DNA from: a virus
DNA length: 64,000 bases
Reading direction: 5' to 3' (one strand)
IMG/VR virus record: IMGVR_UViG_3300015374_000004
Coordinates: 5,787 to 69,786 of that record
Below the pieces are notes generated by a model. It was not told the DNA's origin. It saw nothing but the letters and a program-made list of their open reading frames with translations, and searched no databases. Both the position numbers and the translations under genes were made by a program. Position 1 is the first letter of the stretch; every line of letters begins with the position of its first letter. Positions 9,534 to 33,262 of this stretch are shown in pieces.

Positions 9534-11111
9534 TTAGAGGTTGCCCAGCGAGAACTCGCTGACCAGCCCCGGCGTGGAGCCGTCGAGGCCCACCAGGTCG
9601 AGGTGGGTGGCGTCGGTCGGATCGGCGATGGTGTACCGGTTCGCGTTCATGGCCACGAACGCCGTCCGAGCGTCGATGCCGGACGTCTCCTTGTAGGCGC
9701 GGAGCGCCTGGTGCGTGTGGATGTCGCCAGCCCACGTCTCGTTGTCCGTCAGGAAGACGAACGTGTCCACGTTCAGGTGCTCCTGCGTGGCCCACAGCAC
9801 CGGGAGGCTGGCGTCGGTCCCGCCACCACCGACCCGAGCGGCGAGCAACGCCTCACGGAGCGAGGACTTCGGGCTCATCGCCAACGGGTACAGCGAGCGG
9901 TCGTAGCCGACCACGGCGCAGTGCTCCTCGGTGGCCAGGGTCACCAGACCCATCGCAGCCCCAGCCTCGCGGCAGGAGATCGGGCTTCCGATGACGTGGT
10001 TGTTCATGGACCCCGACACGTCCAGGCAGATCAGCGTCCGCTTGCCGGACGGCTTGACGGTCTGGAAGGCCAAGGTGAAAGCCTCACCGAGCGCGTCCAC
10101 GATCTTGCCCTCGGGCACCCAGGTCTTGCCGGAGCGGTAGCCCCCGCCAGAACCGTAGACAGCCGAGGCCAGGAGGAACTGCATCGGGTGGACGCGGCCC
10201 CTCTTGATCACGTCGACGTCGGTGAGCCGCTCCACGACCCGCTTCGTGGTGTCGGAGAACGGCGCGATGAGGCCCACCGTGGTCATGGTGGCGAGGTTGC
10301 GCACCATGGCCGTGATCGGCATGTCTTCGAGCAGCGCCTCCCACACAGCGGGCGAGCGCAGCGCCTCGGAAGGCACGGCCTCTCGGGGCAGGCGGTACTG
10401 GCGGATGGCCGAAGCCACCGTCAGATCGTCAGCACCCTTGGACATCTCGAAGCCACGGATGACGTCGGGCAGGTTGCCGTCAGGCGTCTTGCCGACCACC
10501 CAGGCGAGGACGTCGTTGACGCCTCCCTTGGCCACCTCGGGGTGAGCGAGGCGCAGAAGGTCACGCTGAGCCCAGCCGTCTCGCGACTGGTACTTGACCA
10601 TCTGGTAGGCGAGGTTGTCGCTGGTCTTGCCCTCGTACCACCGGGCCACGGCGCGCCGTAGGCCCCGGCCCCAACCCCTGAACTGCTCGACGTAACTCGC
10701 GAACATGAGCAGATGGGAGCCGGTACGGCACACCGTGGCGATGGCGGCCTCGCCAGCCCGGCGGGTGACGGGGTCAGCCGCACCGCAGCAGGCAGCGAGA
10801 GCGAACAGGGTGGCGTTCTGCTTGGGCGCCAGACCCAGTTCGCTGACCAAGGCCAGTTCACGGACAACGCGAGGCCCGTCCGCAGCGATGCAGCGGAGCA
10901 GGACGGTGGCGTTCTCCTTGGTGAGATCGCGCTCGGAGATGTAGGCGGTGCCCCCATCCGTGCCGAGGACCAGGAACCGGCGAAGCCGCATCCAGTCGCT
11001 CGACTCGAAGACGAACCCACCGGCCGTGTTCTGCACCATGTCGGTGCGGGTGGGGTCGGGCTCGCTCTGAGGGGTGGCACGCGTCCCGAAGGCGCGCAGG
11101 GGATCAGTCAT
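9534..11111 (-). CDS. rsr: Ro60-like RNA-binding protein (TROVE domain plus C-terminal vWA with MIDAS)
   Basis: About 525 aa. Helical-repeat TROVE region and a vWA 'LICLDVSGSMN' DxSxS motif. RBS GGAGG 9 nt before the ATG at 11111. Confidence 0.8.
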   Translation of the reverse strand: MTDPLRAFGTRATPQSEPDPTRTDMVQNTAGGFVFESSDWMRLRRFLVLGTDGGTAYISERDLTKENATVLLRCIAADGPRVVRELALVSELGLAPKQNATLFALAACCGAADPVTRRAGEAAIATVCRTGSHLLMFASYVEQFRGWGRGLRRAVARWYEGKTSDNLAYQMVKYQSRDGWAQRDLLRLAHPEVAKGGVNDVLAWVVGKTPDGNLPDVIRGFEMSKGADDLTVASAIRQYRLPREAVPSEALRSPAVWEALLEDMPITAMVRNLATMTTVGLIAPFSDTTKRVVERLTDVDVIKRGRVHPMQFLLASAVYGSGGGYRSGKTWVPEGKIVDALGEAFTLAFQTVKPSGKRTLICLDVSGSMNNHVIGSPISCREAGAAMGLVTLATEEHCAVVGYDRSLYPLAMSPKSSLREALLAARVGGGGTDASLPVLWATQEHLNVDTFVFLTDNETWAGDIHTHQALRAYKETSGIDARTAFVAMNANRYTIADPTDATHLDLVGLDGSTPGLVSEFSLGNL

Positions 11112-11169
11112 GTGGATGTTGCCTCCAGTCAAGTGGTTGACGTCCCGACCAGTTGCATCGAGAACAGGA

Positions 11170-11424
11170 CGCCTCCGGCCCGGAGGGCCAGATCTAACGA
11201 TGCGGTCAAGTGAGTGGTCCGGGGGTCGACCACGGCGAACCGTGGCGGCGGGATTTGAACACCGCTCACTTCTTGCGAAGCGTCATCCAGAGGTAACCCG
11301 AGCCTGTCGGCCCGCATCTATGTCGATGGTCGGATGGTCAAGGGTTGGCTGCGGGAACTGGTTTCATCCAGAGTGAAAGGTAACCCGCTGCCTTCGGCCC
11401 ATCCGAAGTTCTGAGGGACAGTAT
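11170..11424 (-). ncRNA. candidate Y-RNA-like (Yrl) structured ncRNA(s) between tRNA-Cys and rsr
   Basis: Non-coding 325-bp gap upstream of rsr on the same strand. Contains a T-arm-like 'GGTGTTCAAATCCCGCC', a UUCG-tetraloop hairpin (CCACGG-TTCG-CCGTGG), a cloverleaf-like closing stem AAGTGAG/CTCACTT, three copies of 'ACTCACT(T/G)GACC' and a duplicated 'CGGGTTACCT..CTGGATGA' module. Flanked by a TATACT -10 and a GC hairpin. Confidence 0.35.
11172..11187 (-). terminator. GC hairpin (CCTCCGG/CCGGAGG) downstream of the structured RNA and upstream of rsr
   Basis: Inverted repeat followed on the minus strand by CGTCCTGTTCTCG. Confidence 0.3.
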
Positions 11425-11457
11425 ACTGGAGACTGCTCACCGGTCCAGTGAGTTTCG

Positions 11458-11528
11458 AGGGGTGGGCCGGACTCGAACCGGCGTAGTCCGCTTTGCAGGC
11501 GGACGTCTAGCCACTCGACCACCACCCC
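11458..11528 (-). tRNA. tRNA-Cys (anticodon GCA)
   Basis: Minus strand 5'-GGGGTGG..TCCGC-CTGCAAA-GCGGA..GCCGG-TTCGAGT-CCGGC-CCACCCC-T. 7-bp acceptor, anticodon loop CUGCAAA, T-loop TTCGAGT. 71 nt, no encoded CCA. Confidence 0.8.
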
Positions 11529-14921: not shown

Positions 14922-16265
14922 TCACTCCCTTGCTCCGGCGGGTAGTTCCAGGAGGCCGCCCTCGATGAGTTCGAGGCGGCGCTCGAAGTAGGCGCCGAGA
15001 TCTTCCTCGTCGTTGGGCTCCAACGTGTCGGAGATCACGATGATCTCGTCGTCGGCGGCGTCGTCAGGATGGGTCAACCCCTGCAGGTGCTCGGTGATGG
15101 CTGCGGCGTCGGCGGCCTGCTCGGCGTCGTAGTTGTCCACGGTGATGACCCTGGACAGGTCAGCCACCTTGTCGAGACCGTCGCACTGGATGTACCTGGT
15201 GGACAGCCTGTCGATGGGGACGACCACGTCGTCGACGACGGTGTAAGGGTCCAGCGAGATCATCACCGTCGCCAGCACTCGGCCGACATCGGTGATGATG
15301 CCGGGGAGCGGATCACGCCGCATCCCGTCGTCGCCCTTGTGGGGACGGAACCAGATCTTGTTCCCGACCACGAGGTCGTCCTCGCTGATCGGCTTGTCGT
15401 TGGCCAGGACGCTCTTCGGCTCGTCGGCCGGTTTCGTGGCCGAGGTGGTGCCTCGGTTCCACTCGATCCAGTCGTCGTCGTCGTGGCTCCAACCGCCAGC
15501 GGTGTAGGTGCTGGTGTAGGAGCGGCGGGTGTAGCCCCACGTGTCGGGGATCTCGAACTTGTCCCAGAGGAGGAAGTCGAACGTGTCCCCGTTGTACGAG
15601 CCGATGAAGCCTTCCTCGGCTTCCTCGGGCTTCGTGTCGGTCGGCTCGTTCAGGTAGATGAGACCTGCCTGGACAGCGCCAGGAGTCGAGCCGAACATGA
15701 GTGAGCCGTTCTGGCTCATGGCGTAGCAGAGGGGCGAGCCCTCGCCGCGAGCCATGTTGAGCACCAGAGGCTCTCGGACGTCGATCCACGCCGTCGCCAT
15801 GTGACCCTCGATGAGGCCCAGGGCCTCCTTCGGATCTTCGACGTTGGCCAGGGCAGCGAAGATCGCCTCGGAGTCAACCTCGGCGTACTGCGGCCACCGC
15901 TTGGCGGCGAACAAGCGCTTGTCGTTGTTCACCCACCCGTTGTGGATGCCGATGATGTGACCCGACTGGACCGGATGGTTGTTCCGGTTCACCAGCGGGT
16001 CGCCCTGAGTCGCCAGTCGGGTGTGGATGAGGGCCAAGCGAGCGCCCTCTCCGATTCCCGGCCTGCTGTCGAAGAACTGGCCCGCGGCAACGGGGGCCTT
16101 CGACAACTTGACTCGACCGCTCGCTGACACCCGAACGACGCCTGTGGCGTCGCGGCCTCGATGCTCGATCGAGAGGCCCATCGTGCGCACCATCCTTGCG
16201 ATGCGCGACGGGTCGAGGTCGGCGTAGTCGAGCGGCGACAGGACAAAGCCTGCGATTCCGCACAT
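14922..16265 (-). CDS. class II (Ntn) glutamine amidotransferase domain protein with an acidic C-terminal domain
   Basis: 'MCGIAGFV' places the nucleophile Cys at position 2, so the start must be at 16265 rather than the upstream Met. 'GIHNGWVNN' also present. Confidence 0.65.
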   Translation of the reverse strand: MCGIAGFVLSPLDYADLDPSRIARMVRTMGLSIEHRGRDATGVVRVSASGRVKLSKAPVAAGQFFDSRPGIGEGARLALIHTRLATQGDPLVNRNNHPVQSGHIIGIHNGWVNNDKRLFAAKRWPQYAEVDSEAIFAALANVEDPKEALGLIEGHMATAWIDVREPLVLNMARGEGSPLCYAMSQNGSLMFGSTPGAVQAGLIYLNEPTDTKPEEAEEGFIGSYNGDTFDFLLWDKFEIPDTWGYTRRSYTSTYTAGGWSHDDDDWIEWNRGTTSATKPADEPKSVLANDKPISEDDLVVGNKIWFRPHKGDDGMRRDPLPGIITDVGRVLATVMISLDPYTVVDDVVVPIDRLSTRYIQCDGLDKVADLSRVITVDNYDAEQAADAAAITEHLQGLTHPDDAADDEIIVISDTLEPNDEEDLGAYFERRLELIEGGLLELPAGARE

Positions 16266-16322
16266 GTGTTCTATGTGCCTCACTTTCTGCGGGATCCACC
16301 CGCGGTAGGACACGTGTCCGTG

Positions 16323-18898: not shown

Positions 18899-19342
18899 TC
18901 AGAGCGGGCGGGGAACGTCGGACGGCCACGCCAGGTCGTTGCGCGCGGCGAACTCGCGCGCCCGGCGCAAGAACTCCGGCATGAACTGCTCGGGGCCATC
19001 GCCCTCGGCGAACGCTTCCTGGCCGGGGCCGTCGTGGCACGACTGGAACGCCGACAGGGTCTCGGCGTTGAGGCCGTCGAACAGGGCCTTGATGGCCACG
19101 TAGCGGTCGTCGTCGGCGGTCAGCAGCACGTAGATGCCGTGGCCCTCCAACTCGCCGGGTTCGTAGACATCGTCGGGGATCGAGTGGCCGATGGCGCACC
19201 GGACCTCGAAGAACGAACCGTCCTCGGCGTACTTCGCCGTGCGGTAGGCGCAGGTCACTCCGTCGTGGGCGTAGGTGCCCTGGGCGACGATCCCACGCAC
19301 TCCCGCGTCGAAGACGTCCTGGAGCGTGAGTGAGTTGCTCAT
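18899..19342 (-). CDS. hypothetical protein
   Basis: Start 'MSNSLTLQ' lies after GAGAGGAGGTGATTAC. Confidence 0.45.
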   Translation of the reverse strand: MSNSLTLQDVFDAGVRGIVAQGTYAHDGVTCAYRTAKYAEDGSFFEVRCAIGHSIPDDVYEPGELEGHGIYVLLTADDDRYVAIKALFDGLNAETLSAFQSCHDGPGQEAFAEGDGPEQFMPEFLRRAREFAARNDLAWPSDVPRPL

Positions 19343-19548
19343 GTAATCACCTCCTCTCTGCAGGGGGCTCAACCCGGAGGCGGGGCCGGGGAGCCCCCTG
19401 CAGGGGGGAGGGGACGTTTCTGCTCAGGAACGGCGCACACTCCGGCGCGACCGGCTAGTACGCCGTCCCGAGCAGATGTTTCACGTGAAACTCGCCAGTG
19501 CGAGCACGGCGGCGAGGCAGAGGCTCACGAGGAGCCAGGGGAACCGCG

Positions 19549-19728
19549 TCATGGCCAGTACCCCATATCGAGACGGTGGCGGGTGCCGGATGCGGCCACG
19601 TCGCAAGTCCTCGGCATGTTGCCCAGGTTCTCCTGCCAGGAGCAGCCACAGACGACGATGACGTCGCCGACCCTCGCGCCTGGATAGGCGGTGACGACGA
19701 CGGTGACCTTCGGCTCGTGCTCGTTCAT
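19549..19728 (-). CDS. small hypothetical protein (~59 aa, MNEHEPKVTVVV...)
   Basis: Not in the ORF track. ATG 6 nt after GAGAGGAGGTGA. Good GC3. Confidence 0.4.
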   Translation of the reverse strand: MNEHEPKVTVVVTAYPGARVGDVIVVCGCSWQENLGNMPRTCDVAASGTRHRLDMGYWP

Positions 19729-19899
19729 GGGTTCACCTCCTCTCTGGAGAGGCGCTCAGCGGGCTTCGGGTACTGGGCCTCGGCGGCCGTTCTCCTACGC
19801 CCTCGGATTCCTGAGAACCCCTCCAGGGGGGAGGTGGGTAGTTCTGAGCCTCACTCTGTCCTGCCTCCCACGAGCACATCCCACCAGTTCGGCGAGAGT

Positions 19900-20300
19900 T
19901 GATCGACTGCCTCGCGAGCCCGACATACAGGCTTCCCTGGCGATTATCGGGAGGGGGGGGTGGGGGGGGCCACCATCATTTCTCTCCCCTGGGGGAAAGT
20001 CGATGGGGGGGCCGCTGTCGCGGCTTCCCACCCTCGACCTCAACTGGAGGTTTAGGGTGAACCTCGACGTCAACCTCGACTGCAGGTAGAGGGTTGCACT
20101 GGGCAGTGCCAGATTCGACCTCGACTGGAGGGTTAGGTTGAGGGTTCACTGAGAGTGAGGATTCTGACCACAGAGAGTGTGGGTCTCTCAGTGTGGTCAG
20201 CGAAGGTGACAACGAGCACTGAGAGTGAGAGTGAGTGTGAATCCTGGTCTCACTCTGTCCTGGCGTCCCGCGGCACTTCCCACCAGTACGGCGGCCGTGG
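19900..20300. repeat. repeat-rich non-coding strand-switch region (poly-G tracts, ~35-bp 'CGACCTCGACTGGAGGnTTAGG' direct repeats, 'CACTGAGAGTGAG' repeats, ~45-bp imperfect direct repeat at 19845 and 20250)
   Basis: Seen directly in the sequence. No ORF with coding bias. Confidence 0.6.
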
Positions 20301-20353
20301 CACTCTGGTGCTGGCGGCCGCCGTGGCCGCCCACGACAGACAGGACAGAGACC

Positions 20354-21826
20354 ATGACCCGACAGGACCCGAATCGGCTCTGGACGGCCGCCGCGCTCGC
20401 GGCGCTCGCTCAGGCCGACAGAGAGACAGACGCGTGGCTCGCTGACCACGACCCACAACCACCTACCGACCACCGCGGACTGACCGCCTACCGACTGCAG
20501 GGCGGCACGATCACCAGGACCCGGCCGGAGGTTGTGACGCCAGTGCTGACGCCAGCGCTGACGGACGACCAGGCCGACGCGCTGGTGGCCGCTGGTGGCT
20601 CGCTGGTGACGTGGAACGGCCGCACCTACGACGGCGCTCTGAGCGAGGCGCTGGGCACAGAGCCGTCGTTTGACTACGTGACCCAACACGCGACCACCCC
20701 CCACCGCGACCGCGGCGCGTTCACGCGGTGGCCGCTGGTCCGTGTCCGCCGTGTCGACCGTGACACTGGCGGCCGCACGTACGTCAGTGCGCTGGTGCCC
20801 GCGGCCGATGCGACCGTGGTGCAGCGCCGTGCGAGCGCCGTGCCGCTGGTGCTCACTGAGACACGGCCGCGGGTGGTCCGTCGCTCCGGCGTGGTGACCA
20901 TGCACAGCGAGCACAGCGGCCGCACGTACCGGCACGCGGTCAGCGTCACTGTCCGCGGACGGCGCGCCGTGGTGGACGGTACGGCGCCGTGGGTCAGCGA
21001 CCGCGTGGTCAGCGAGCTGCAGTCGCGGCGCCGTGGGCGGACCACCGCGAGGCGCTCGCTGGGATGGTGGAGCGAGTCCACCTACGCCGCGGGTCCAGAG
21101 AGCACCAGGACGGTCCTGGTGGCCGCCTACCGCGTGCAGAGCCACCGCGAGCACCGTGACAGCGGACAGCGGATCTACGGCGCTCTGAGCGCCGCTGACA
21201 GGCTCCACAGCGAGGCGCTGACAGTGTGCGAGGCGCTGCAGCGCACCTACGGCGCGGCGCCGCTGGTCGTGCGGAGCATCGGCGGGACCATCCTCCCGGC
21301 CGCCTACACGGCTGGGATGCTGGCGGCCGATGCGCTGCAGAGCGAGCCGTGGTCGGGTCCGGTGGCCGCACGCGACTGGACGGTCGCCGTGCCTGAGCGG
21401 ATCACGGTGGAGCGCACGATCCCAGCGCTTGACCTGACCCATCGCCCGGCCGACGCGACCGCCTGGCACCTACCGGAGCGGAGCCACGCGAGCACTGGCG
21501 TCGGCAGGACCGGCCGCCCGCCTGTCACGGACGCTGACGCGGTGGCAGTCCTGTCACCAGCGGCCGTGCGAGCACGGCTGACCAGTAGCCCAGAGGCGGC
21601 CGCCTGGTGCGCCCGCCTACTGCAGGCGACAGAGCGCGTCGCGGTCAGTCCTGGTGCCAGCGTCAAGGTGGGCGCTGGCGTCACGCTGACGTTCGACCCT
21701 ACGGCGCTAGACCAGGCGACAGCGCTGACGTTCACTGAGGCGGCCACCGGCCGGTCCTGGTCAGGATCCTGGCGTGGCCGCCGTGCGCTAGCCCAGCGTG
21801 CGGCCGTTGCAACGCTGACCCGGTAG
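20354..21826 (+). CDS. hypothetical protein (490 aa)
   Basis: Non-repetitive sequence with good codon bias. The upstream part of the listed ORF overlaps the repeat region, so the start is placed at the Met at 20354. Confidence 0.5.
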   Translation: MTRQDPNRLWTAAALAALAQADRETDAWLADHDPQPPTDHRGLTAYRLQGGTITRTRPEVVTPVLTPALTDDQADALVAAGGSLVTWNGRTYDGALSEALGTEPSFDYVTQHATTPHRDRGAFTRWPLVRVRRVDRDTGGRTYVSALVPAADATVVQRRASAVPLVLTETRPRVVRRSGVVTMHSEHSGRTYRHAVSVTVRGRRAVVDGTAPWVSDRVVSELQSRRRGRTTARRSLGWWSESTYAAGPESTRTVLVAAYRVQSHREHRDSGQRIYGALSAADRLHSEALTVCEALQRTYGAAPLVVRSIGGTILPAAYTAGMLAADALQSEPWSGPVAARDWTVAVPERITVERTIPALDLTHRPADATAWHLPERSHASTGVGRTGRPPVTDADAVAVLSPAAVRARLTSSPEAAAWCARLLQATERVAVSPGASVKVGAGVTLTFDPTALDQATALTFTEAATGRSWSGSWRGRRALAQRAAVATLTR

Positions 21827-21844: not shown

Positions 21845-21885
21845 GTTCGGCCGCCCGCTGGCACTGTCTGGCGGGCGGCCGAACC
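21845..21885 (+). terminator. 14-bp perfect-stem GC hairpin (GTTCGGCCGCCCGC...GCGGGCGGCCGAAC)
   Basis: Sits immediately after the stop at 21826. Confidence 0.45.
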
Positions 21886-22024
21886 GCGCCCGGTCTGCCA
21901 TCGACCCGGTGGGTGCTCCGCACTAGGGCGAGAGGCTGCTGCCAAGAATGAATCGCTTGCCATAACCCCCATAAGCGACAGCGAAACCCGTTTCCGGGTA
22001 AGCAGCGGGTGTTATGCTTGCGTT

Positions 22025-22225
22025 ATGCCCAGACCCCGTCTGTACTCAGTCCCCACGAAGGCGGTGACCCTGCGGATCCCCGAGACCCATCTCGCCTGGC
22101 TTGACCTGTACTGCAAGTCCAAGGGTCGTTCCCGCTCGCTGGGGGTCGCCAAGGTGATCGAGCAGTTGCCGATCAAGGCTGTCACCGGCACTGTGCGCTT
22201 CGCCGAGAAGGACGTCGTGCCGTGA
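22025..22225 (+). CDS. ribbon-helix-helix (CopG/Arc-like) DNA-binding protein
   Basis: 'VTLRIPETHLAWLDLYCKSKGRSRSLGVAKVIEQ'. The start is embedded in GTTATG direct/inverted repeats. Confidence 0.55.
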   Translation: MPRPRLYSVPTKAVTLRIPETHLAWLDLYCKSKGRSRSLGVAKVIEQLPIKAVTGTVRFAEKDVVP

Positions 22226-22698
22226 GTGAGCGCAACATCATCCACGATCCGGTCAGTTCTCGGCCTCGCAACGGGGCCAACGAGCCTTTGGGGGATCTGA
22301 CGGAGACGCCTTACTCACCCGCCGACCATCTGGACTGGCTGCTGCGGCAACTCAAGGCCGACTCCCAGTTCCCGGTGGAGGTGTACGTCGATGGGATCGA
22401 CACCCATGCCGTCGCGGCCGAAGTTGAGCGGTTGCGGGCCGCGGCACACGACGACTGGGGGACCGCCCCGGAGAAGGGGCATGAGTACGACGACCTGATC
22501 GCCGCGCTTCCCGGCCACCTTCGGTCGAGGATCTGCCACGACGAGATGTACTGCCCGGTGCCGGAGCGCGACTTCGACCACGGCCACACCAACTGCCTGC
22601 TCTTTGGGCTGGCGGCGGCCGAGATCGAGTCCCTTCGGGCCGTGCGCGACGAGATGTACGACTACTTGAAGAAACTGGTGAAGGGAGACCCGGAATGA
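22222..22698 (+). CDS. hypothetical protein
   Basis: Overlapping start-stop coupling. Coding bias. Confidence 0.45.
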   Translation: MSERNIIHDPVSSRPRNGANEPLGDLTETPYSPADHLDWLLRQLKADSQFPVEVYVDGIDTHAVAAEVERLRAAAHDDWGTAPEKGHEYDDLIAALPGHLRSRICHDEMYCPVPERDFDHGHTNCLLFGLAAAEIESLRAVRDEMYDYLKKLVKGDPE

Positions 22699-22999: not shown

Positions 23000-23142
23000 A
23001 CGTCGCCGTCTTCCTGCTCAAGGTGTTCGTCTTCATGGCCTTGCAGCCGATCATCCACGTGTTGGCCTGGCTCGCGCTGGGCATGAGCCTGGGCATCCTG
23101 TGTGCCCTCATCTACGTCGGCCCCCGCAAGGAGCGAACATGA
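22996..23142 (+). CDS. small membrane peptide (48 aa, GTG start)
   Basis: GTGA overlap with the previous gene. TM 'VFLLKVFVFMALQPIIHVLAWLALGMSLGILCALIYV'. Ends in an ATGA overlap with the next gene. Confidence 0.3.
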   Translation: MNVAVFLLKVFVFMALQPIIHVLAWLALGMSLGILCALIYVGPRKERT

Positions 23143-23324
23143 GTACGCCCAAGTTCTTCACCGACGCCCAGCGCGTCACACTCAGGCTCCCAGCCACCCA
23201 CGTCAGCGCGCTCGACGCCTGGTGTGAGCGCAGAGGCGTGAGCCGCAACGTCGCCATCTGCCGCCTCATCGAGGCGTGCCACTTCGACGGCCAGCCCCTC
23301 ATCGCTTCGGAGGACAGACTGTGA
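23139..23324 (+). CDS. ribbon-helix-helix DNA-binding protein (paralog of the 22025 gene)
   Basis: 'VTLRLPATHVSALDAWCERRGVSRNVAICRLIE'. Confidence 0.5.
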   Translation: MSTPKFFTDAQRVTLRLPATHVSALDAWCERRGVSRNVAICRLIEACHFDGQPLIASEDRL

Positions 23325-23641
23325 GCCCCATCGACCTCGGCCCCGGCCAGTCCTACGCGCTGGTCATCACCCGCCGCCCTGACGGCACCATCGTCGAGAC
23401 CTGGTTCCCTGACGTCGTGCTCGTCGCCACTCCCATGGTGGTGCCTGGCGCGGTGTGGGAGGACATGGACGCCACCATCGTCGACCCCGACCGCATCGAC
23501 CACTGGTCGATCGACGGCATCGCCCGCTCTAACGGCAGCGGCTACGCCATGGCCCAGCGGATCCTCGACGCCGACGACCGGCGCACCCTGGCCACCCACG
23601 TCTCCCACTACCGCTCGCCCTTCTGGTCCAACAACCAGTAA
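23321..23641 (+). CDS. hypothetical protein
   Basis: GTGA-coupled to the upstream gene. Confidence 0.4.
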   Translation: MSPIDLGPGQSYALVITRRPDGTIVETWFPDVVLVATPMVVPGAVWEDMDATIVDPDRIDHWSIDGIARSNGSGYAMAQRILDADDRRTLATHVSHYRSPFWSNNQ

Positions 23642-25922: not shown

Positions 25923-26135
25923 ATGGAGAACGAGACCATGAAGGCCGAGGCCGAGCCTCTCGACCTCAAGGAGGCCGCCCGGCGCGCCTCGGCGGCCGTT
26001 AAGGGCCTGAACGAGGTGGCGGGCGTGCGGCGCTCGAAGCACACCGGCTCGGTGGTCCCCCCGGACCTGCGCAAGCAGCGGAACCGAGCCAAGGCCAAGC
26101 GGGCCCGCGCCAGCCGGAAGATCAACCGTGGCTGA
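25923..26135 (+). CDS. small basic protein
   Basis: C-terminus 'RKQRNRAKAKRARASRKINRG'. Confidence 0.4.
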   Translation: MENETMKAEAEPLDLKEAARRASAAVKGLNEVAGVRRSKHTGSVVPPDLRKQRNRAKAKRARASRKINRG

Positions 26136-27093
26136 GGTCGTCTACCTCGGCAACTTCCAGCACGACCACTGCACCGAGGTCCACCTCGCCAGGGAGATGC
26201 AGGCCAACGGCCACCGGGTGAGCAAGGTCCAGGAGCCTCACGACGCCAACGAGCGGTTCGTGCGGCGCCTGGAGGCCAAGGTGTCGAACCTCAAGCCCGA
26301 CCTGTTCCTCTGGACGAGGACGTGGGGCCTGCCACCGATGGCGACCGACACGTGGCGACGGTTCGAGGAGAAGGGCATCACCACCGCCTCCTACCACCTC
26401 GACCTGTACCTGGGGCTCAAGCGGGCCGAGAAGATGCGCCGCGACCCGTTCTGGACGACCGGCTACGTCTTCACGCCGGACGGCAACGCCTCCAGCGAGC
26501 GCTACTTCCACTCCATGGGCATCAACCACTGGTTCATGCCGCCCGCGGTCGTCTCCGACGCCGTACATGAGGGCATCAGGATGCCTGAGTACGTCTCCCC
26601 GCTGGCCTTCGTCGGCTCGTGGAAGAACTACCACCCCGAGGAGTGGCCGTTCCGCCAGACGATGGTGCTGTGGCTCCAGAGGCGCTACCAGAGGGAGTTC
26701 GCCGCCTGGGGGGCCAACGGCCGGGGCACGATCCGTGAGGGCCACCTGAACGACCTGTACGCCTCGGTGAAGGTCGTGGTCGGCGACAACCTCTCCCTGC
26801 GGGGCAACACCCACTACATCTCCGACCGCTACTTCGAGACGCTGGGCCGCGGCGGCTTCCTGGTCGCCCCCTACGTCCAGATCCTCGACGAGTTGGGCTT
26901 CGTCCACGGCGAGAACATCTGGACGTATCGCTCGGCCGACCTGTCGGACCTGGAGTACCAGATCAAGGTCACCCTCGCCCTACCGCCCGAGCGGCGCAAG
27001 GAGATCGTCGCCAACGCCATGGCCTTGATCAAGGAGCGACACACGTACCGCCATCGCCTGCAGAAGGCGTTCGAGATCATGGGAGTGCAGTGA
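26128..27093 (+). CDS. glycosyltransferase (CgeB/DUF3880-like)
   Basis: 321 aa. The C-terminal 'YISDRYFETLGRGGFLVAPY' resembles the CgeB-type GT domain. First gene of the glycosylation cassette. Confidence 0.45.
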   Translation: MAEVVYLGNFQHDHCTEVHLAREMQANGHRVSKVQEPHDANERFVRRLEAKVSNLKPDLFLWTRTWGLPPMATDTWRRFEEKGITTASYHLDLYLGLKRAEKMRRDPFWTTGYVFTPDGNASSERYFHSMGINHWFMPPAVVSDAVHEGIRMPEYVSPLAFVGSWKNYHPEEWPFRQTMVLWLQRRYQREFAAWGANGRGTIREGHLNDLYASVKVVVGDNLSLRGNTHYISDRYFETLGRGGFLVAPYVQILDELGFVHGENIWTYRSADLSDLEYQIKVTLALPPERRKEIVANAMALIKERHTYRHRLQKAFEIMGVQ

Positions 27094-27605
27094 AACTCAT
27101 CATCGGCGCAGGACAGGAGAGGATGGAGGGCTGGACGACGGTCGACATCGACCCCGCCAACGAACCTGACATCGTGGCCAGCGCAGACGACCTGAACATG
27201 ATCCCCGACTGGACCGTCGAGGAGATCCGCGCCGTCGACATCCTGGAGCACATGCCCTACCGCACGGTGGGCAAGACGCTGGGCGAGTGGCGCCGAGTGT
27301 TGAAGCCCGGCGCGCTGGCCTTCATCCAAGTCCCGGACGCCGGGACGGTGATGCACTGGTGGGTGAGCCGTGACCCGAGGCTCCTGCAGCGGATCCCCGA
27401 GGAGATGGAGCGGACGTTCATGAACGGGGTCAACTGGCGGCTGATGGGCGGCCAGGACGACGCCTACGGCGACTGGACGTACAACGTCCACTACACGCTG
27501 TTCTCGGCGGCCAGCCTGACCAAGGCCGTGGCCGACGCAGGCTTCCGGCTCCGGGAGATCAACACCGACACCCACCCCAACCTGTACTGCTGGGTGAGCG
27601 CGTGA
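27090..27605 (+). CDS. SAM-dependent methyltransferase
   Basis: 'KLIIGAGQERMEGWTTVDIDP', glycine-rich motif I. Confidence 0.5.
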   Translation: MKLIIGAGQERMEGWTTVDIDPANEPDIVASADDLNMIPDWTVEEIRAVDILEHMPYRTVGKTLGEWRRVLKPGALAFIQVPDAGTVMHWWVSRDPRLLQRIPEEMERTFMNGVNWRLMGGQDDAYGDWTYNVHYTLFSAASLTKAVADAGFRLREINTDTHPNLYCWVSA

Positions 27606-28279
27606 TCACGATCATCTCTCCCCACCTCGACGACGCCGTGCTGTCGCTGGGTGACTTCCTGGCGCGCAACGAGGTGCCGGTCTCGGTTGTCACCGTGCTC
27701 GCTGGCATCCCCGGCTTCCTGCCGCTCACCAAGTACGACTTCGACTGCGGCTTCTCGTCAGGAGCCGAGGCGATGGGACGCAGGCGGGTCGAGGACAAGG
27801 ACGCTCTGGCCTTCCTCCGCTGTGAAGCCCACCACCTCGACTTCCTGGACATGCAGTACGGCATCGAGCAGAACCCGGAGCAGATCAAGGCCGCGCTCAA
27901 GCCGCACCTCGACATGGCCTTCGGTCCGGTGTACGTCCCGCTCGGCCTCGTCCACCCGGACCACGAACTGGTCGCCCGCTGTGCGATGGAGATGCTCCTC
28001 CCCCAGGAGGGCAGGGAGATCTTCGTCTACGAGGACGCACCGTCGCGGGTGCTGTACCCCGAGTCGGTCAGGGAGGCGATCCTGCTTCTCGGCGGTCGGG
28101 GCTGGGTAGTGAGTGACGCGATCTACGTCCCGCAGGAACTAGACCTGATGCGGCGGAAGATGCAAGCCATCCATCACTACCGCTCCCAACTATGGTCCCT
28201 CGATCTCGCATCGTCCCTAGCCCCGGAGAGGATCCACCCAGTGGTCCCCTCCCGCGTCTTGGAGGAGATCCCGTCATGA
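27602..28279 (+). CDS. LmbE/PIG-L family N-acetylglucosaminyl deacetylase
   Basis: 'IISPHLDDAVLSLG' (PIG-L 'HPDDE') and 'HPDHE' motifs. Confidence 0.6.
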   Translation: MITIISPHLDDAVLSLGDFLARNEVPVSVVTVLAGIPGFLPLTKYDFDCGFSSGAEAMGRRRVEDKDALAFLRCEAHHLDFLDMQYGIEQNPEQIKAALKPHLDMAFGPVYVPLGLVHPDHELVARCAMEMLLPQEGREIFVYEDAPSRVLYPESVREAILLLGGRGWVVSDAIYVPQELDLMRRKMQAIHHYRSQLWSLDLASSLAPERIHPVVPSRVLEEIPS

Positions 28280-28788
28280 GGCTGAACTTGGGTTGCGGCC
28301 TCGACGTCCGTGAGGGCTGGGTCAACATCGACTGCGAGCCCTCGGGCAACGGTGCGGTCGTCCTGATGGACGTCGTCAAGGAGGGGATCCTCTACGACAG
28401 CGGCTCGGTCGACTTCATCTTCATGGGGCACATGCTTCACATGGTCGAGCCCGACTCCGTGCCAAAGTTGCTCGGGGAGTGCCATCGAGTCCTCCGTCCC
28501 GGTGGCGCTCTCCGCATCGTCGAGATGGACTTCGAGAAGGCGATCGTCAACTGGCAGAAGGGGAACGACGAGTGGTTCCCGGTCGCTGACGAGATCGAGC
28601 GGACTCTCGACGGCAAGTTGCTGCGCTACCTCACCTGGCACGGCACGCGCCGGTCGCTGTACACGCCCCTCTACCTGTTCTCGCTGTTCACGGACACGGA
28701 CTTCGAGCACTTCGGCCTCGGCCGGTACGGCGACTGCGAGTTGGACGCCAGAGAGTCGGAGTCCGTCGTCTTCGAGGCCATCAAGTGA
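28276..28788 (+). CDS. SAM-dependent methyltransferase (Methyltransf_11-like)
   Basis: 'LNLGCGLDVREGW', 'LRPGGALRIVE'. Confidence 0.55.
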   Translation: MRLNLGCGLDVREGWVNIDCEPSGNGAVVLMDVVKEGILYDSGSVDFIFMGHMLHMVEPDSVPKLLGECHRVLRPGGALRIVEMDFEKAIVNWQKGNDEWFPVADEIERTLDGKLLRYLTWHGTRRSLYTPLYLFSLFTDTDFEHFGLGRYGDCELDARESESVVFEAIK

Positions 28789-29771
28789 CACGGCTGGCGT
28801 TGATCGCCAGGGCAGACAACGGCGGGCTCGGCAACCAGACGTGGGAGATGGCGAACCACCTCAAGCCGGAGAAGGTGCTCGTCGTCCACTCCCGGCACAT
28901 CACGAGGGGTCACGCCGACGTCTCTCGGTACGTCGACTCCGAGGCCGAGGTGCGCATCACCCCGAGAGGGCCGACAGACGCCGAAGCGCGCTGGCTCTGC
29001 TACGGGATCGACAAGATCCTGACCGCGGAGACGTTCTACGGCACAGCGATCCCCACCGCAGCGCGCAGACGGGGCGTGCTGACCATCAACCACTGCAACC
29101 CGGAGATGTTCAGGGCCACCGACACGGCCGACGTGAACCTGGCGCCCACCGACTGGCGCATGGACAGGCTGCCGAAGGGCACCCGAGTCGTCCCGATGCC
29201 GGTGGTGATGGCGTCGGACGAAGGCTGGGACGGCCACAGGACCATCTGCCACGTCCACTCGGACGCCATGTGGGACCGCAACGGGACCGGCGACCTGCTC
29301 GATGCGCTCCAGTACCTCCACGAGTCGACCTTGGTGACGATCCTGGGCGGCAAGGCGGGCTACGAGGAGATCGGCAAGGCCACCGTCATCTGGCTCGGCC
29401 CCATCCAGGACTCCTACAAGATCGCATGGAAGCAGATGAGGGGGATCTTCGTGCTGCCTCGGCGCTTCGGAGGGCTCTGTCTGCCCATCCAGGAGGCCGC
29501 AGCGCGCTCCAGACCCATCATCACGACCAACGTGGGGCCTCAGAACAAGTGGCAGGGCGCCGCGCTGGTCCCTGCGAGCGTCAGGAGCATCGAAACGATG
29601 CCCGGAGGCCGATTCGAGGTCTACCAGTGCTCTCCGAGGGGTCTTGCGCACGAAATCGAGCGCGTTCTGACCATTCACGGCCCTCTGCTGGCGAAACGGG
29701 CCTCCGAATGGGCCTCAGAGCGGTCTTGGGAGGCTCTGGGGCCTCTCTGGACCTCGATCTGCCGTGATTAG
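28785..29771 (+). CDS. glycosyltransferase family 4 (GT-B)
   Basis: The E-X7-E region 'RRFGGLCLPIQEAAARSRPIITT'. Confidence 0.55.
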   Translation: MTRLALIARADNGGLGNQTWEMANHLKPEKVLVVHSRHITRGHADVSRYVDSEAEVRITPRGPTDAEARWLCYGIDKILTAETFYGTAIPTAARRRGVLTINHCNPEMFRATDTADVNLAPTDWRMDRLPKGTRVVPMPVVMASDEGWDGHRTICHVHSDAMWDRNGTGDLLDALQYLHESTLVTILGGKAGYEEIGKATVIWLGPIQDSYKIAWKQMRGIFVLPRRFGGLCLPIQEAAARSRPIITTNVGPQNKWQGAALVPASVRSIETMPGGRFEVYQCSPRGLAHEIERVLTIHGPLLAKRASEWASERSWEALGPLWTSICRD

Positions 29772-30471
29772 CCTCCTGGTGCCCTTCCGGCCCGGAGATC
29801 CGGTCCGAGACCGCCTCTGGAGGCACGTGAAGGGCCTCTGGAGGGCCGCAGCGCCCGATTGGGAGTTGATCTGGGCCTCAGACGACCCAGATGGCCCCTG
29901 GCGCAAGGGTGTGGCCGTCCAGAGGGCTCTGAGCGCCTCCACAGGCGAGATCGTGGCCGTCATCGACGCCGATACGTGGATTCCGGGCGTGTTCGAGGCC
30001 GTGGAGCGCGTCCAGAGCGGCCAGACGTGGGTCAGGAGCCACCATCAGGTGCTCAGACTGACCCAGGAAGCCACCGAGAAGGTGCTCCTGGGAGCCCATA
30101 TCAGCCTCGTCGGGGGGTACCCGGAGAACCTCGTGGACCCTCCGTACACCCAAACGGCGGCCGGAGCGGGCACTGTGTGCCTCAGATCGGTCATCGAGGA
30201 CATTCCCATCGACTGCCGTTTCGCTGGCTGGGGAGGGGAGGATTCGGCCTGGGCGGACGCTCTGACGACCTTCTACGGCCCCGCGAGCCGTGTGAACGAC
30301 TTCTGCTACCACCTGTGGCACCCTCCGGCGCCCAGAATCGGCCCCAAGATCGGTTCAGACCTCTCGAACCAACTCCGCATCCGCTACAAGCAGGCGTTTC
30401 GCAACAGAGAGGCCACAAGGGTCCACGTCGAGGCCGGGAGGTATCACTCCCGGCACTTCGACGTCGTCTGA
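29764..30471 (+). CDS. glycosyltransferase family 2
   Basis: 'ISLLVPFR' and a DxD motif 'VIDADTW'. Confidence 0.55.
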   Translation: MISLLVPFRPGDPVRDRLWRHVKGLWRAAAPDWELIWASDDPDGPWRKGVAVQRALSASTGEIVAVIDADTWIPGVFEAVERVQSGQTWVRSHHQVLRLTQEATEKVLLGAHISLVGGYPENLVDPPYTQTAAGAGTVCLRSVIEDIPIDCRFAGWGGEDSAWADALTTFYGPASRVNDFCYHLWHPPAPRIGPKIGSDLSNQLRIRYKQAFRNREATRVHVEAGRYHSRHFDVV

Positions 30472-30475
30472 GGTA

Positions 30476-30760
30476 CTACCGCAGGTTGCGGAAGGGATCG
30501 GCGCCCAGATCGGGCATCGGACCGGTCCCGTTGGCCATCTTCGGTATCACCAGGCCGCCCCGGCGCCTCTGCAGCGCCTCGTAGAGCCACTGCTCCACGT
30601 TCTCCTCGAAGAAGTAGTGGGACTCCTGGGACTGGGTGTTGAAGATCAACACCCAGCGCTCCGTGCCGTCAGGGAGGGTTGCGGTGGCCTCCCTGACGGT
30701 GAACGGCACTGGTGCCGGTTGGACGATGGGGACGTTGTCCCCCGGCAACTGTGTGGTCAT
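30476..30760 (-). CDS. hypothetical protein
   Basis: 94 aa with coding bias. Confidence 0.4.
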   Translation of the reverse strand: MTTQLPGDNVPIVQPAPVPFTVREATATLPDGTERWVLIFNTQSQESHYFFEENVEQWLYEALQRRRGGLVIPKMANGTGPMPDLGADPFRNLR

Positions 30761-31440
30761 GCCAGCCGACGCCTGGTGGCGTAGACGAGCAGCCCACCGA
30801 GGGCCAGGGCCACCAGGGCAACCGGCGCAGCGTTGGAGCCCTTCCCGGTCGCGGGCAGCGTGGCCGGGGAGACCGTGGCCGATGCGGCCGTGGTCGGGGT
30901 GGTGGCCACCGTGGTCTGCCCAGGGACCGTGGTCGCGGGGACCGTGGTCGTCGGCGTGGTGGTGGTGGAGACGACCTGCGAGGCGCAGACGTACGGGCCA
31001 CCGACTCGGCCGTTGGCCTGACCGTTGCCAGTGAAGACGGCCTTGATGTCGATCTGGCCGCAGCCGACCGTGAAGGTCAGCGTGACCGGGCCGACCGAGT
31101 TGGCCGGGAAGGTGCCGGACACGTCTGAGTCCACCGCGCCGCCCGCACCCGAGGTGCCCTCATGGGCGACCACTCGGATCGGGAACGGCTGGGGCACCGG
31201 CTTGTCCAGGGTGTAGGTGACCGTGGAGCCCTTGCCGTCCGCGGGGACGTTGAGCACGATGGTCACGGTCCGCTGCAGCGTCCCGAAGGTGAACGTCTTC
31301 GAGTTGGTGCAGGTCACCGGGGCCTGCTGGATCTTCTGGTTCCCCCCGCAGAGCGGGAAGGACTGGGCTTGGGCGTGACCGGCTACTGCCGCCCCCCCGA
31401 AGGAGAGGACGGCAGCGACGGCCACGAGGGTCTTCCTCAT
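30757..31440 (-). CDS. LPXTG cell-wall-anchored surface protein with a Thr/Pro-rich stalk
   Basis: N-terminal signal peptide. C-terminal 'LPATG' + hydrophobic segment + 'RRRLA'. Confidence 0.65.
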   Translation of the reverse strand: MRKTLVAVAAVLSFGGAAVAGHAQAQSFPLCGGNQKIQQAPVTCTNSKTFTFGTLQRTVTIVLNVPADGKGSTVTYTLDKPVPQPFPIRVVAHEGTSGAGGAVDSDVSGTFPANSVGPVTLTFTVGCGQIDIKAVFTGNGQANGRVGGPYVCASQVVSTTTTPTTTVPATTVPGQTTVATTPTTAASATVSPATLPATGKGSNAAPVALVALALGGLLVYATRRRLA

Positions 31441-31442
31441 GG

Positions 31443-32453
31443 TTAGCCTCCTGCTACGGCTGCGGCGGCGGCGTCAGCCGTGCCGGTCGTGTTGACGATG
31501 ATGGGTGACTTCCCATCGGTGATGATCACCTTGACTCCGGGGGCGATCTTGTCGATGTAGTGCGACGTGATCAGTTCCGGCGTCAAGGACTGTGCCACAA
31601 GGTTGTTCGCTGCGGCCTCCGCTTCGGCCGCGATCTTCACGGACTCGGCGGAACCCTTGGCGGTCTCGATGGCCTGGTTGGCCTGAGCGGTGGCTGTGGC
31701 GACCTGAGCCTGGGCCTCCTGGGCCTTCTGCTTGGCAGCCTGCTTGTCCTCGATGGACTGCTTGTACTGCTTCGAGAAGTCCAGGTTGTCGATCAGCAGG
31801 TCGTTGACCGTGATCGAGTACTTGCGCAGATCCTCCGCGAGCCGAGCCTTGACGGCCTTGCGGATGTCCTCTCGGTGCGGAGCGATCTGGTCAGCCGTGT
31901 AGGGGACCGTCTCCTCCTTGAAGAAGTTGTGGACCCTCGCGGGCACCAGCACCTCGAACCAGTTCTTGCCGACGTTCTTGAACAAGTCCTGGACCTTGTT
32001 CTTGTCCAAGGAGTAGTTCAGGGTGACGTCGAAGAACACGTCCTGGGTCTCTGACGAGAAGGCCACGATCTCCTGGCCCTGGCCCTTGTCCTTCTGGAAC
32101 CGGTACTTCTGCACCTTGATCGACTGCTTCGACAGCGACTCCCAGGGCGGCAAGATCTGCACGCCAGGGTCACGTTGGCCGACGATCTTCCCGAACCGGT
32201 AGACGACCCCGACTTCACCGGAGCCGACCGTATGGAACGAGAAGAAGGCCGTGACCAGCAGCCACAGGAAGAAGCCTGCGCCGAAGACGGCCATCCCGCG
32301 AGCAGGGGTGCCCTCGTACTTGTAGACGGGCTCCCCCCTCTGTCGGGTCTCGTAGTCGTCTTCGACCTTGCTGCTGGCTGCCAGGGCTCCCACAGCGGAG
32401 AGCCCCAGCAGGAGCAGGGATACGAGGATCCAGCCGATCATCACGCAGCCCAC
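31443..32453 (-). CDS. SPFH/Band-7 (stomatin/prohibitin-like) membrane protein
   Basis: N-terminal TMs. 'GEVGVVYRFGKIVGQRDPGVQILPPW' SPFH core and a coiled-coil C-terminus. Confidence 0.65.
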   Translation of the reverse strand: MGCVMIGWILVSLLLLGLSAVGALAASSKVEDDYETRQRGEPVYKYEGTPARGMAVFGAGFFLWLLVTAFFSFHTVGSGEVGVVYRFGKIVGQRDPGVQILPPWESLSKQSIKVQKYRFQKDKGQGQEIVAFSSETQDVFFDVTLNYSLDKNKVQDLFKNVGKNWFEVLVPARVHNFFKEETVPYTADQIAPHREDIRKAVKARLAEDLRKYSITVNDLLIDNLDFSKQYKQSIEDKQAAKQKAQEAQAQVATATAQANQAIETAKGSAESVKIAAEAEAAANNLVAQSLTPELITSHYIDKIAPGVKVIITDGKSPIIVNTTGTADAAAAAVAGG

Positions 32454-33262
32454 CAGTTCGGCAGGCGGTGGCCCCCACGGCCGGAGTTGATGACGTCGAC
32501 CGCAGCCGCAGCCACCGACTGAGCCTTGGGCCGACCGGTCGCCCGGCGGATGCCCTCAGCCCGCTGGAGCAGGCCCCGAGCGCCTCCACGAGCACTGCCC
32601 AACTTGCGGGCAGCCTCCTCGTCGACGAGAGCGTCGCCGTAGCGGTTCATCAGGAGGCCGAAGCCAGCCACGATGTTGCCAGCGGGCTCCTTGCCGTAGG
32701 CGAGGTTGATGAACTTGAGGACTCGGTCGAGCCCCTCGGAGCCGTTCTCGTCCCAGATGCGACGGAGGGCTGCGAGGCAGCGGATGTGGGTGATGTCCGT
32801 GGCTTCATCCCCGTTGGAGCCGGTCGAGCCAGCGACGGGGACGGCGTAGCCGTTCTCGAAGCAGATCCGAGCGATCTCGTTCTCGGGCACCCGTCCGGCC
32901 TGGACGGCGACCTTGAACTTGTCGTTGGGGGAGACGTTCAGGCGGTCGTTGCGCCGCAGGAACATCTCAGCCTCCTCCTGCTCGGAGAGGCCCTCACGGA
33001 CTTCGCACTCGATCATCTGATCGTTCCAGCCCATGGCGCGCAGTGCGGCGACACGGTGCTGGCCGTCGATGACGTAGTACCAGCCGTCCCGGAAGGACAT
33101 GACGGGGTAGCCGAGTTCGTCCGGGTCGAACTCACTGGCGAGGTAATCCACGAAGTGGCTTCGCAGATCCCGCTGGGTGAGGGGAGAGACTCGGATCCGC
33201 TCGATGGGCACCCAACGGATGTCCCCCGTTCGGACGAGCCGCTCACGTGTTTGCGTGGGCAA
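32441..33262 (-). CDS. ParB-like nuclease domain protein
   Basis: 'YYVIDGQHRVAALRAMG' is the ParB/Srx N-terminal motif. Confidence 0.55.
   Translation of the reverse strand: MPTQTRERLVRTGDIRWVPIERIRVSPLTQRDLRSHFVDYLASEFDPDELGYPVMSFRDGWYYVIDGQHRVAALRAMGWNDQMIECEVREGLSEQEEAEMFLRRNDRLNVSPNDKFKVAVQAGRVPENEIARICFENGYAVPVAGSTGSNGDEATDITHIRCLAALRRIWDENGSEGLDRVLKFINLAYGKEPAGNIVAGFGLLMNRYGDALVDEEAARKLGSARGGARGLLQRAEGIRRATGRPKAQSVAAAAVDVINSGRGGHRLPNWWAA

Follow-up and report, generated by a model that had tools for sequence, protein, structure and literature searches.

What is the function of a long non-coding gap between two oppositely transcribed gene blocks in a phage genome? We address this question for a gap of 625 bp at positions 19729-20353 of a viral DNA stretch of 64,000 nucleotides (nt; IMG/VR record IMGVR_UViG_3300015374_000004, positions 5,787 to 69,786), which we call the window and whose coordinates are used throughout. 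The gap is bordered by the ATG of a minus-strand gene of 59 amino acids (aa) at 19728 and the ATG of a plus-strand orphan gene of 490 aa at 20354, and a first-pass annotation had proposed it as a candidate replication origin or regulatory hub. Our analysis favours a promoter/operator hub over the main replication origin as its most likely role. More specifically, we assign a probability of about one half to the reading that the gap is a modular divergent promoter/operator cassette travelling with the rare 490-aa gene. Four elements would make up this cassette: an operator-like box array, a leader that masks a Shine-Dalgarno (SD) sequence, a conserved palindrome with a G8-N-G8 tract, and lineage-specific repeats. 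The features of the gap and its borders are as follows.

19549-19728, minus strand: 59-aa gene, first of the leftward block; ATG at 19728, SD GGAGG (plus-strand CCTCC, 19736-19740)
19734-19836, minus strand: inverted repeat of the leftward 5' leader; arms 19734-19759 and 19811-19836 (26 nt, 81% complementary)
19850-19894, plus strand: bracketing direct repeat (D2), copy 1, 45 nt
19910-19921, strand not assigned: palindrome element CCTCGCGAGCCC, containing the perfect 8-bp palindrome CTCGCGAG
19949-19969, plus strand: GGGA-G8-T-G8 tract, GGGAGGGGGGGGTGGGGGGGG, 21 nt, also a homopurine mirror repeat
19959-19984, plus strand: terminator-like hairpin GGTGG-GGGGGG-CCACC followed by ATCATTTCTC, from a consensus scan only
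19991-20011, plus strand: second G-tract, G5 AAAGTCGAT G7
19991-20024, plus strand: hairpin GCCGCTGTCGCGGC with the second G-tract, from a sequence and repeat scan
20034-20141, plus strand: three 27-nt direct repeats (TCGACCTCRACTGGAGG..TAGGGT-like) starting at 20034, 20070 and 20115, 74-89% identical
20147-20235, strand not assigned: 13-bp box array, consensus CACKGAGAGTGAG, with boxes at 20147, 20169, 20217 and 20223
20164-20200: 37-bp palindrome within the box array
20245-20353, plus strand: hairpin of the rightward 5' untranslated region (UTR), in which CUCUGUCCUG (20253-20262) pairs with CAGGACAGAG (20341-20350) at 100% complementarity just before the ATG
20249-20293, plus strand: D2, copy 2, 45 nt, 80% identical to copy 1
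20354-21826, plus strand: 490-aa orphan gene, apparently monocistronic
21847-21884, plus strand: GC-rich hairpin directly after the 490-aa gene, read from the sequence; a likely terminator

A non-coding gap that recurs beside an orphan gene

The gap is real and non-coding. Independent gene callers place no gene in it on identical contigs, and the open reading frames (ORFs) that it contains translate into low-complexity junk rich in R, G and P; the non-coding region of about 600 bp described in the first-pass annotation thus stands. A GC-frame signal at 19930-20170 might have indicated small ORFs, but these were rejected because of the junk translations and because the spacing between blocks conserved with the related contig L005 (13 and 9 nt in the local alignment) is not always a multiple of three. 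A JGI contig of 72,349 bp carries the same sequence, as do contigs from Logan and ENA at more than 99.98% identity, and the gap region is identical in three assemblies produced with different assemblers and pipelines, although the underlying libraries may be related. At this level of identity the contigs L001-L003 offer no divergence for comparison.

The 490-aa gene is the only gene shared with all related loci. Its protein has no match in Pfam, PHROG or PDB and none in phage records (tblastn), profile searches of Pfam and PDB with the family also found nothing and no similarity to an initiator family, and with a pLDDT of 36 its AlphaFold model cannot be used. Neither pattern scans over viral and metagenome contigs nor two word-index searches turned up anything but the protein itself. 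Only when 1.84 billion representatives were searched exhaustively with HMMER did two homologues emerge, of 429 and 479 aa and about 30-37% identity; in about 15 billion predicted proteins, only three members of the family are known.

The homologues on contigs L005 and L006/L007 sit at the same kind of divergent junction. The leftward gene block of L005 ends 494 bp before the homologue, and at least 450 bp of repeat-dense sequence precede it in L006 and L007. Analogous GC-rich hairpins follow the homologues in L005 and L006. Except for a small ribbon-helix-helix (RHH)-like gene downstream in L006, no other gene is common to the window and its relatives, and therefore the non-coding region and the 490-aa gene behave as one module. 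The comparison with related phages that the first-pass annotation had recommended thus finds conservation, namely of the gap layout, of the box arrays in all relatives and, in L005, of the palindrome with G8-N-G8, which lends support to the regulatory-hub part of that annotation. These alignments indicate that the gap region is partly conserved and under selection.

Boxes, promoter-like signals and a predicted SD-masking leader

The short repeats CACTGAGAGTGAG mentioned in the first-pass annotation are present at 20147-20235 as two exact copies and two copies with two mismatches. With up to two mismatches, only three further sites occur outside this array on both strands of the 64 kb, versus four within its 89 bp. 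Counting boxes with up to two mismatches, the arrays upstream of the family gene comprise 4 copies (window), 5 copies (L005) and 9 copies (L006); CACKGAGAGTGAG occurs nowhere else on the L005 and L006 contigs. About 115-140 nt separate the end of the arrays from the start codon of the family gene. The orientation of the boxes differs among these loci (plus in the window, all minus in L005, both in L006), which points to recognition as double-stranded DNA. In the window the array coincides with the second-lowest 150-bp stretch in GC content (20111-20260, 53% versus a mean of 66%), which is still GC-rich in absolute terms. Scans of viral and genome collections with box pairs returned only chance matches and Paenibacillus CRISPR-like arrays.

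The repeats that contain CCTCGAC appear to be specific to the lineage of the window. A five-fold CCTCGAC box within direct repeats of about 35 bp had been described here; such boxes do lie within direct repeats, but there are four exact copies (at 20032, 20062, 20074 and 20119, plus the variants TTCGAC, CTCAAC and GTCAAC) and the repeats are 27 nt long. The heptamer is common throughout the window (53 copies versus 27 expected), and the three 27-nt repeats that contain it are absent from L005 and L006. The D2 repeat, reported earlier as an imperfect repeat of about 45 bp that brackets the region, was confirmed once its coordinates had been corrected to those listed above: its direct-repeat score of 18 compares with 9.4 ± 1.1 (maximum 13) in 200 dinucleotide shuffles, none of which reached it. 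Reverse-complementing the left end of copy 1, CTCACTCTGTCCTG, gives a box-like sequence.

We examined promoter signals against the composition of the window, in which TA dinucleotides are strongly depleted (observed/expected 0.41) and TANNNT hexamers are rare (74 on both strands of 64 kb). Many of these hexamers belong to a TRAGCA-N8-TATACT-N6-ATG motif that recurs where leaderless genes start. Sites of the form T[AG]AGCA-N8-TAT(A/G/C)CT occur at 22013, 23653, 47691, 3088 and 25549 on the plus strand and at 11425, 25527, 34661 and 36344 on the minus strand, mostly with an ATG exactly 6 nt downstream, a distance that implies leaderless mRNAs; sites of the same type occur in L006 (2349) and L083. 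The only TANNNT hexamers in the gap are TAGGGT (20053-20058) and TAGGTT (20134-20139), both on the plus strand in repeat units 1 and 3, and TAGGTT lies 7 nt upstream of the first 13-bp box. In L005, TAGCGT and TACCGT lie inside the box array. This arrangement fits, without proving, TAGGGT and TAGGTT as candidate -10 elements of a rightward promoter embedded in an operator array.

On the leftward side, the leader RNA is predicted to form a hairpin in which CACCUCC pairs with the SD GGAGGUG of the first leftward gene (ΔG = −57.4 kcal/mol, z = −3.0, 0 of 200 shuffles). The equivalent leader of L005 (ΔG = −62.6, z = −5.3, 0 of 200 shuffles) likewise pairs CACC(U/C)CC with the SD GGAGGUG, although the inner stems differ in sequence between the two and the first leftward genes are unrelated. 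The 59-aa product of the window has no family match. The start context GAGAGGAGGTGA..ATG of its gene was considered as a specific block of conservation between the window and L005 and rejected, being the generic gene-start consensus in both phages. On the rightward side, the UTR hairpin of the window is also predicted to be stable (ΔG = −63.6, z = −3.9, 1 of 200 shuffles).

These folds raise the possibility that the conserved elements act mainly as RNA, either as structured 5' UTRs or as a non-coding RNA whose G-quadruplex and hairpins control the translation or stability of the flanking genes. The whole gap does fold better than shuffles on both strands (z = −3.1 plus, −5.2 minus), the SD-masking hairpin is kept in L005, the rightward UTR hairpin pairs a D2 repeat with the translation start region, and the orientation of the G-tract with respect to the family gene is the same in the window as in L005. 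Inverted repeats in DNA, however, yield good folds for either strand regardless of transcription, and the orientation of the boxes flips between relatives. Moreover, the rightward UTR folds of L005 and L006 are not significant, and covariation on only three poorly aligned sequences is uninformative. A search of Rfam 15 gave nothing at the gathering threshold, neither for the window (best match skipping-rope, 19.7 bits versus 36.7 required, E = 0.1) nor for L005, L006 and L083. We therefore regard an action mainly at the RNA level as decidedly unlikely.

Which protein might bind the boxes is suggested by the genes downstream:

21999-22225, plus strand: TAAGCA-N8-TATGCT-N6-ATG motif and leaderless 66-aa RHH-like gene (22025-22225)
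23139-23324, plus strand: second RHH-like paralogue, 61 aa (Pfam RHH_1, E = 0.005), 37% identical to the 66-aa protein

In L006 a TATACT-N6-ATG precedes the RHH-like gene at the same relative position as in the window, and the order of box array, family gene, hairpin and leaderless RHH-like gene is shared by the two loci. Clustered short repeats conserved together with a regulator, as expected of RHH operators, are thus found here, with boxes at all three loci and an RHH-like gene downstream in the window and L006. The RHH-like proteins of the window and L006 are similar to each other. The assignment of these small proteins to the RHH class is weak but consistent: domain matches are spread over three paralogues and orthologues with one each (RHH_1, E = 0.005; Arc, E = 0.003; FitA-like RHH, E = 4e-4; below the gathering score where shown), a PHROG 'transcriptional repressor' match has E = 0.0015, and the AF2 model of the 61-aa protein has a predicted beta-alpha-alpha topology (core pLDDT about 85) with Arc, CopG, MazE and NikR as its top Foldseek neighbours at E > 1. 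Downstream of each RHH-like gene lies a second gene, which shares a 4-nt overlap with it and encodes 158 aa, 106 aa or, in L006, an 87-aa membrane protein (22025-22698; 23139-23641; L006 2361-2773), pairs that are reminiscent of antitoxin-toxin or small autoregulated operons.

The same gene order allows another interpretation. The parC-parM-parR partition layout consists of a repeat array, a large gene and a small RHH gene, and the gap, with its many short repeats in arrays, might by analogy be a centromere-like partition site or other nucleoprotein assembly site of the RHH-like protein (as for omega or ParG), with the 490-aa protein as its partner. That protein has no actin-like, ParA-like or tubulin-like signature, however, and a hairpin and a separate promoter lie between its gene and the RHH gene. 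Furthermore, the window has a separate ParB-like gene (32441-33265), and the genes scanned included neither an integrase nor any plasmid-prophage feature. A partition site thus appears very improbable.

We favour instead a divergent promoter/operator cassette that would work as follows. The 13-bp boxes CACKGAGAGTGAG would be operators for a phage protein, which would be the 490-aa protein or the RHH-like one whose gene lies just downstream, and would lie over or just downstream of a rightward promoter; TAGGGT and TAGGTT, the only -10-like hexamers of the gap, lie in or next to the repeats. A leftward promoter would lie near 19847-19852. Its transcript would start with a hairpin of about 100 nt masking the first leftward gene's ribosome-binding site, and this hairpin would have to be unfolded or processed by an RNase before translation. 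The CTCGCGAG palindrome and the G8-T-G8 tract, located between these presumed promoters, might form a structure-prone spacer (G-quadruplex, triplex or cruciform) that senses or buffers the negative supercoiling arising from divergent transcription, or might serve as a roadblock or terminator.

Several points weigh against this reading. The role of the spacer or roadblock is its least supported step and a conjecture, and both the operator role of the boxes and the promoters are read from the sequence. The recurrent TRAGCA-N8-TATACT-N6-ATG motif is absent from the gap, and a sigma-70 promoter scan found none in 19000-21000. Folds equivalent to the rightward UTR hairpin are not significant in the relatives, as noted above, and the comparative evidence comes from only two or three distant loci. 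Finally, because the RHH-like genes have their own promoters and an overlapping gene after each, they may only autoregulate their own small operons.

The G-tract and the question of an origin

The G-tract is exceptional within the window. Its two G8 runs are the only runs of at least 8 in 64 kb, and hence the only G8 pair, and 4 of the 26 G or C runs of at least 6 in the window fall within 190 bp. The segment 19945-19969 is the top G4Hunter site (2.88, the next best being 2.04), and 19949-19969 is one of only two plus-strand matches to a canonical G-quadruplex motif, searched as a regular expression with four tracts of at least three Gs and loops of 1-7 nt. G-runs with G-quadruplex potential, as the first-pass annotation had it, are thus present and that potential holds at the motif level only, but the first run reads G8-T-G8 and not G7-T-G8.

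Conservation of this tract is clearest together with the palindrome. The element CCTCGCGAGCCC is identical at 12 of 12 positions in L005 and collinear, which on its own has a p of about 0.01 (3 of 300 shuffles), and CTCGCGAG has two other copies in the window. At the collinear position of the tract, L005 has GGGGA-G8-A-G8 (21 nt, 95% identity, E = 0.002). When CCTCGCGAGCCC and GGG(G)A-G8-N-G8 are chained, the alignment of the window with L005 scores 39, versus 21.7 ± 2.5 in shuffles (0 of 300), although the adjacent proteins are only about 34% identical. A further block after the tract, in the region of the second G-tract (CTGGGGrArwTCGAwG), was rejected as conserved because 139 of 300 shuffles reach its score. 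The terminator-like hairpin that overlaps the tract was found once versus 0.4 times expected, with a stem of only 5 bp and a weak T run.

A search of viral contigs for GGGAG8NG8 yielded 74 loci (L008-L081), mostly poly-G artefacts at contig ends. Many IMG/VR contigs start or end in long poly-G (G17 and longer, often followed by poly-C), which look like sequencing or assembly artefacts and contaminate searches for G-rich motifs. Natural-looking copies of GGGAG8AG8 in long intergenic regions of unrelated viral contigs occur in L023 (5586), L026 (6861) / L065, L028 (3723), L054 (6435), L080 (13480) and L048 (60), on the sense strand of the flanking gene in each case examined and in several cases 50-170 nt from a terminase gene. 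The L054 tract directly follows six DnaA-box-like ATGTGGATAAC repeats and lies 58 nt before a small-terminase-like gene, that of L028 stands 50 nt ahead of a gene for 554 aa whose sequence looks, by eye, like a large terminase, and that of L023 lies between an AT-rich stretch and inverted repeat arrays. We treat these copies as leads and not as relatives. Within the window, a smaller G6-A-G6 tract (GGGGGGAGGGGGG) is present at 3350-3362, inside a predicted ORF (3286-3657) and about 450 nt upstream of a WhiB-like gene.

A scan of viral contigs for CTCGCGAGCC..G8 returned 8 matches, at or below a rough chance estimate, and a wider family is not established. In L083, 1200-1320 holds two copies of CTCGCGAGCC, each followed by a G/C-run hairpin, the second of which is perfect (C7TC4-TTCG-G4AG8). 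L145 (reverse strand, 1240-1290) reads G8CTTCGAATCTTGGG and resembles G8TCTCGAATCTGGGG of L005, and a phage group of 37% GC (L148-L152) has the GC island GCTCGCGAGCCG8AGGGTGGGCCC just upstream of a TTGACA/TAATAT promoter. With a match count at or below chance, the relationship of these elements to the window is unproven.

Contig L003 ends exactly at the G-tract, and this, together with the artefacts among the 74 loci and the natural-looking copies near terminase genes, might suggest a physical end of the genome or a packaging site at the G-tracts, or a poly-G artefact of sequencing or assembly. Contig breaks, however, often happen at homopolymers, and the tract is only 21 nt long, with unique flanks on both sides and no adaptor. 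It is also identical in the three assemblies from different assemblers and recurs collinearly in L005, which comes from an unrelated run; the other G and C runs of the gap belong to hairpins, and the large terminase gene of the window is 13 kb away. We consider an end or an artefact very unlikely.

The first-pass annotation also proposed the gap as a candidate origin, for which three features elsewhere in the window are relevant:

5234-6757: large terminase, mentioned above
36496-37164: replication-initiation gene (phrog_270, E = 9e-33; O-like families also match), which overlaps the beginning of a DnaB-like helicase gene
36767-36831: three palindromic iterons of 20 bp each (GGGTCCCTCATGGTGAGGGA) inside the initiator gene, spaced 22-23 bp apart

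The origin reading can be stated as follows. The gap would be a secondary or primary replication origin, in which the repeats or the box array serve as iterons for the 490-aa protein as initiator, the stretch of 53% GC unwinds, and G8-T-G8 stabilises an R-loop or hybrid G-quadruplex primer. Its architecture is origin-like, with repeats, a local GC minimum, palindromes and a G-tract, and the joint inheritance of a cis element and a gene resembles an ori-initiator pair. The mitochondrial element CSB II (conserved sequence block II; G6AG8) acts through hybrid G-quadruplex and R-loop formation (PMC3488243, PMC4176368, PMC5027508). Natural-looking G3AG8AG8 tracts in unrelated viral contigs also stand beside DnaA-box-like repeats (L054) or an AT-rich, repeat-flanked stretch (L023).

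Nevertheless, we find the origin part of the first-pass annotation unsupported. The iterons at 36767-36831, in a classical lambda-like arrangement within an initiator gene that adjoins a DnaB-like helicase gene, are the most canonical origin candidate of the window, whereas the gene next to the gap belongs to a family without similarity to any initiator. DnaA boxes (TTGTCCACA, up to two mismatches) number 134 in the window versus 137 expected, and the two in the gap each have two mismatches, which is the chance level. The 27-nt repeats are absent from the relatives and their spacing of 36 and 45 bp does not show the classical helical phasing of about 22 bp, nor do the box arrays of L005 and L006, which are spaced at 36-38 bp. 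No rightward promoter upstream of 19949 that reads into the G-tract was identified. GC skew, which had been suggested as a check, follows the direction of transcription and cannot locate an origin. The case for the gap as the main replication origin of the phage is therefore weak, and an origin of either kind in the gap seems to us unlikely.

A narrower idea concerns only the palindrome CTCGCGAG and G8-N-G8, which together might be a new co-transcriptional cis element of phages. As RNA polymerase passes through, the non-template strand with its Gs and the nascent RNA would combine into a hybrid G-quadruplex or R-loop, halting transcription and yielding either a primer or a supercoil-sensitive switch, as a counterpart of CSB II in a bacterial virus and possibly as a second, transcription-primed origin tied to the 490-aa protein. 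We regard this as highly doubtful.

Genomic setting and known systems

The window (66% G+C) encodes, along with the large terminase, a portal, a capsid protein, a tape-measure-sized ORF of 2023 aa, Erf, WhiB, Ro60/TROVE, a ParB-like protein and a DnaB-like helicase. Its portal shares only about 27% identity with those of Gordonia, Microbacterium and Mycobacterium phages, and none of 50,697 phage records matches the window at the DNA level (megablast, blastn); these results indicate an uncultured actinobacterial phage without close sequenced relatives. A 951-bp contig from run SRR26290486 (L004) carries a relative of the neighbouring 147-aa gene of the window, the single one found, at about 65% protein identity, which indicates that a closer relative of this phage exists in that run; the contig ends short of the gap region.

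Other genes of the window may deserve attention in their own right. On the minus strand, within 9534-11528, a Ro60 orthologue (TROVE and Ro60 vWA domains, E = 1e-44 to 1e-48) adjoins a tRNA-Cys gene (11457-11528), and the two may form a phage-borne pair of the Ro and Y-RNA-like type; the promoter-like TATACT site nearby at 11425 has no ATG after it. A class II glutamine amidotransferase gene lies within the leftward block (coordinates of its group 14922-16322, minus strand), and three glycosyltransferase-like genes and a gene for an LPXTG-anchored protein lie rightward of the gap (26011-30471, plus strand; 30757-31473, minus strand). These genes may reflect modification of DNA or of the cell surface.

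Control regions of uncultured actinobacterial phages are almost unknown, and the present analysis defines a family of 13-bp boxes, a leader predicted to mask the SD and a palindrome conserved together with G8-N-G8, tied to a gene family of three members. Should the boxes be operators, they would open a direct route to what the orphan protein does and to how early genes are controlled in these phages. Should the G-tract work by way of a G-quadruplex or R-loop, it would be one of few such cases in a bacterial virus, and a testable one. A simple promoter/operator would be ordinary but useful for annotation, since the origin would then be annotated at 36767-36831 and not in the gap.

Of the known systems, the operator arrays of RHH proteins (P22 Arc/Mnt immI, pMV158 CopG, pSM19035 omega, ParR/ParG) resemble the gap in their clusters of short direct and inverted repeats in a promoter region, in a small RHH-like gene in cis and in a repeat number that varies among relatives. 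The gap differs from them in that its boxes are putative binding sites and that its RHH assignment is weak (Pfam E = 4e-4 to 5e-3, Foldseek E > 1). Its 13-bp boxes are spread over 90-280 bp, its RHH-like genes, each with a leaderless promoter of its own, may serve other operons, and its conserved neighbour is a 490-aa orphan protein. Lambda-type origins (iterons in the O gene and an AT-rich stretch) and iteron plasmid origins share with the gap direct repeats, a local GC minimum, palindromes and a co-inherited adjacent gene, but in this phage an O-like initiator with internal iterons is found elsewhere, and the gap has a neighbour without initiator signature, 27-nt repeats that are not conserved and no enrichment of DnaA boxes.

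CSB II (G6AG8) and the G-run of ColE1 RNA II are elements in which an R-loop or hybrid G-quadruplex gives rise to a primer. The G-tract is nearly the same in form as these, being an interrupted tract in a non-coding control region that is conserved across divergent relatives. It would, however, be read by a bacterial multisubunit RNA polymerase, in contrast to the T7-like mitochondrial enzyme. The RNase III-sensitive leader of phage lambda N is an example of SD-sequestering hairpins that are processed or opened so that translation can proceed. The leftward leader of the window is similar in that a long, stable stem upstream of the first gene of an early-looking operon is predicted to pair an anti-SD with the SD sequence, and it differs in that this stem is very stable (about −57 to −63 kcal/mol) and in that the same inverted repeat could act as DNA.

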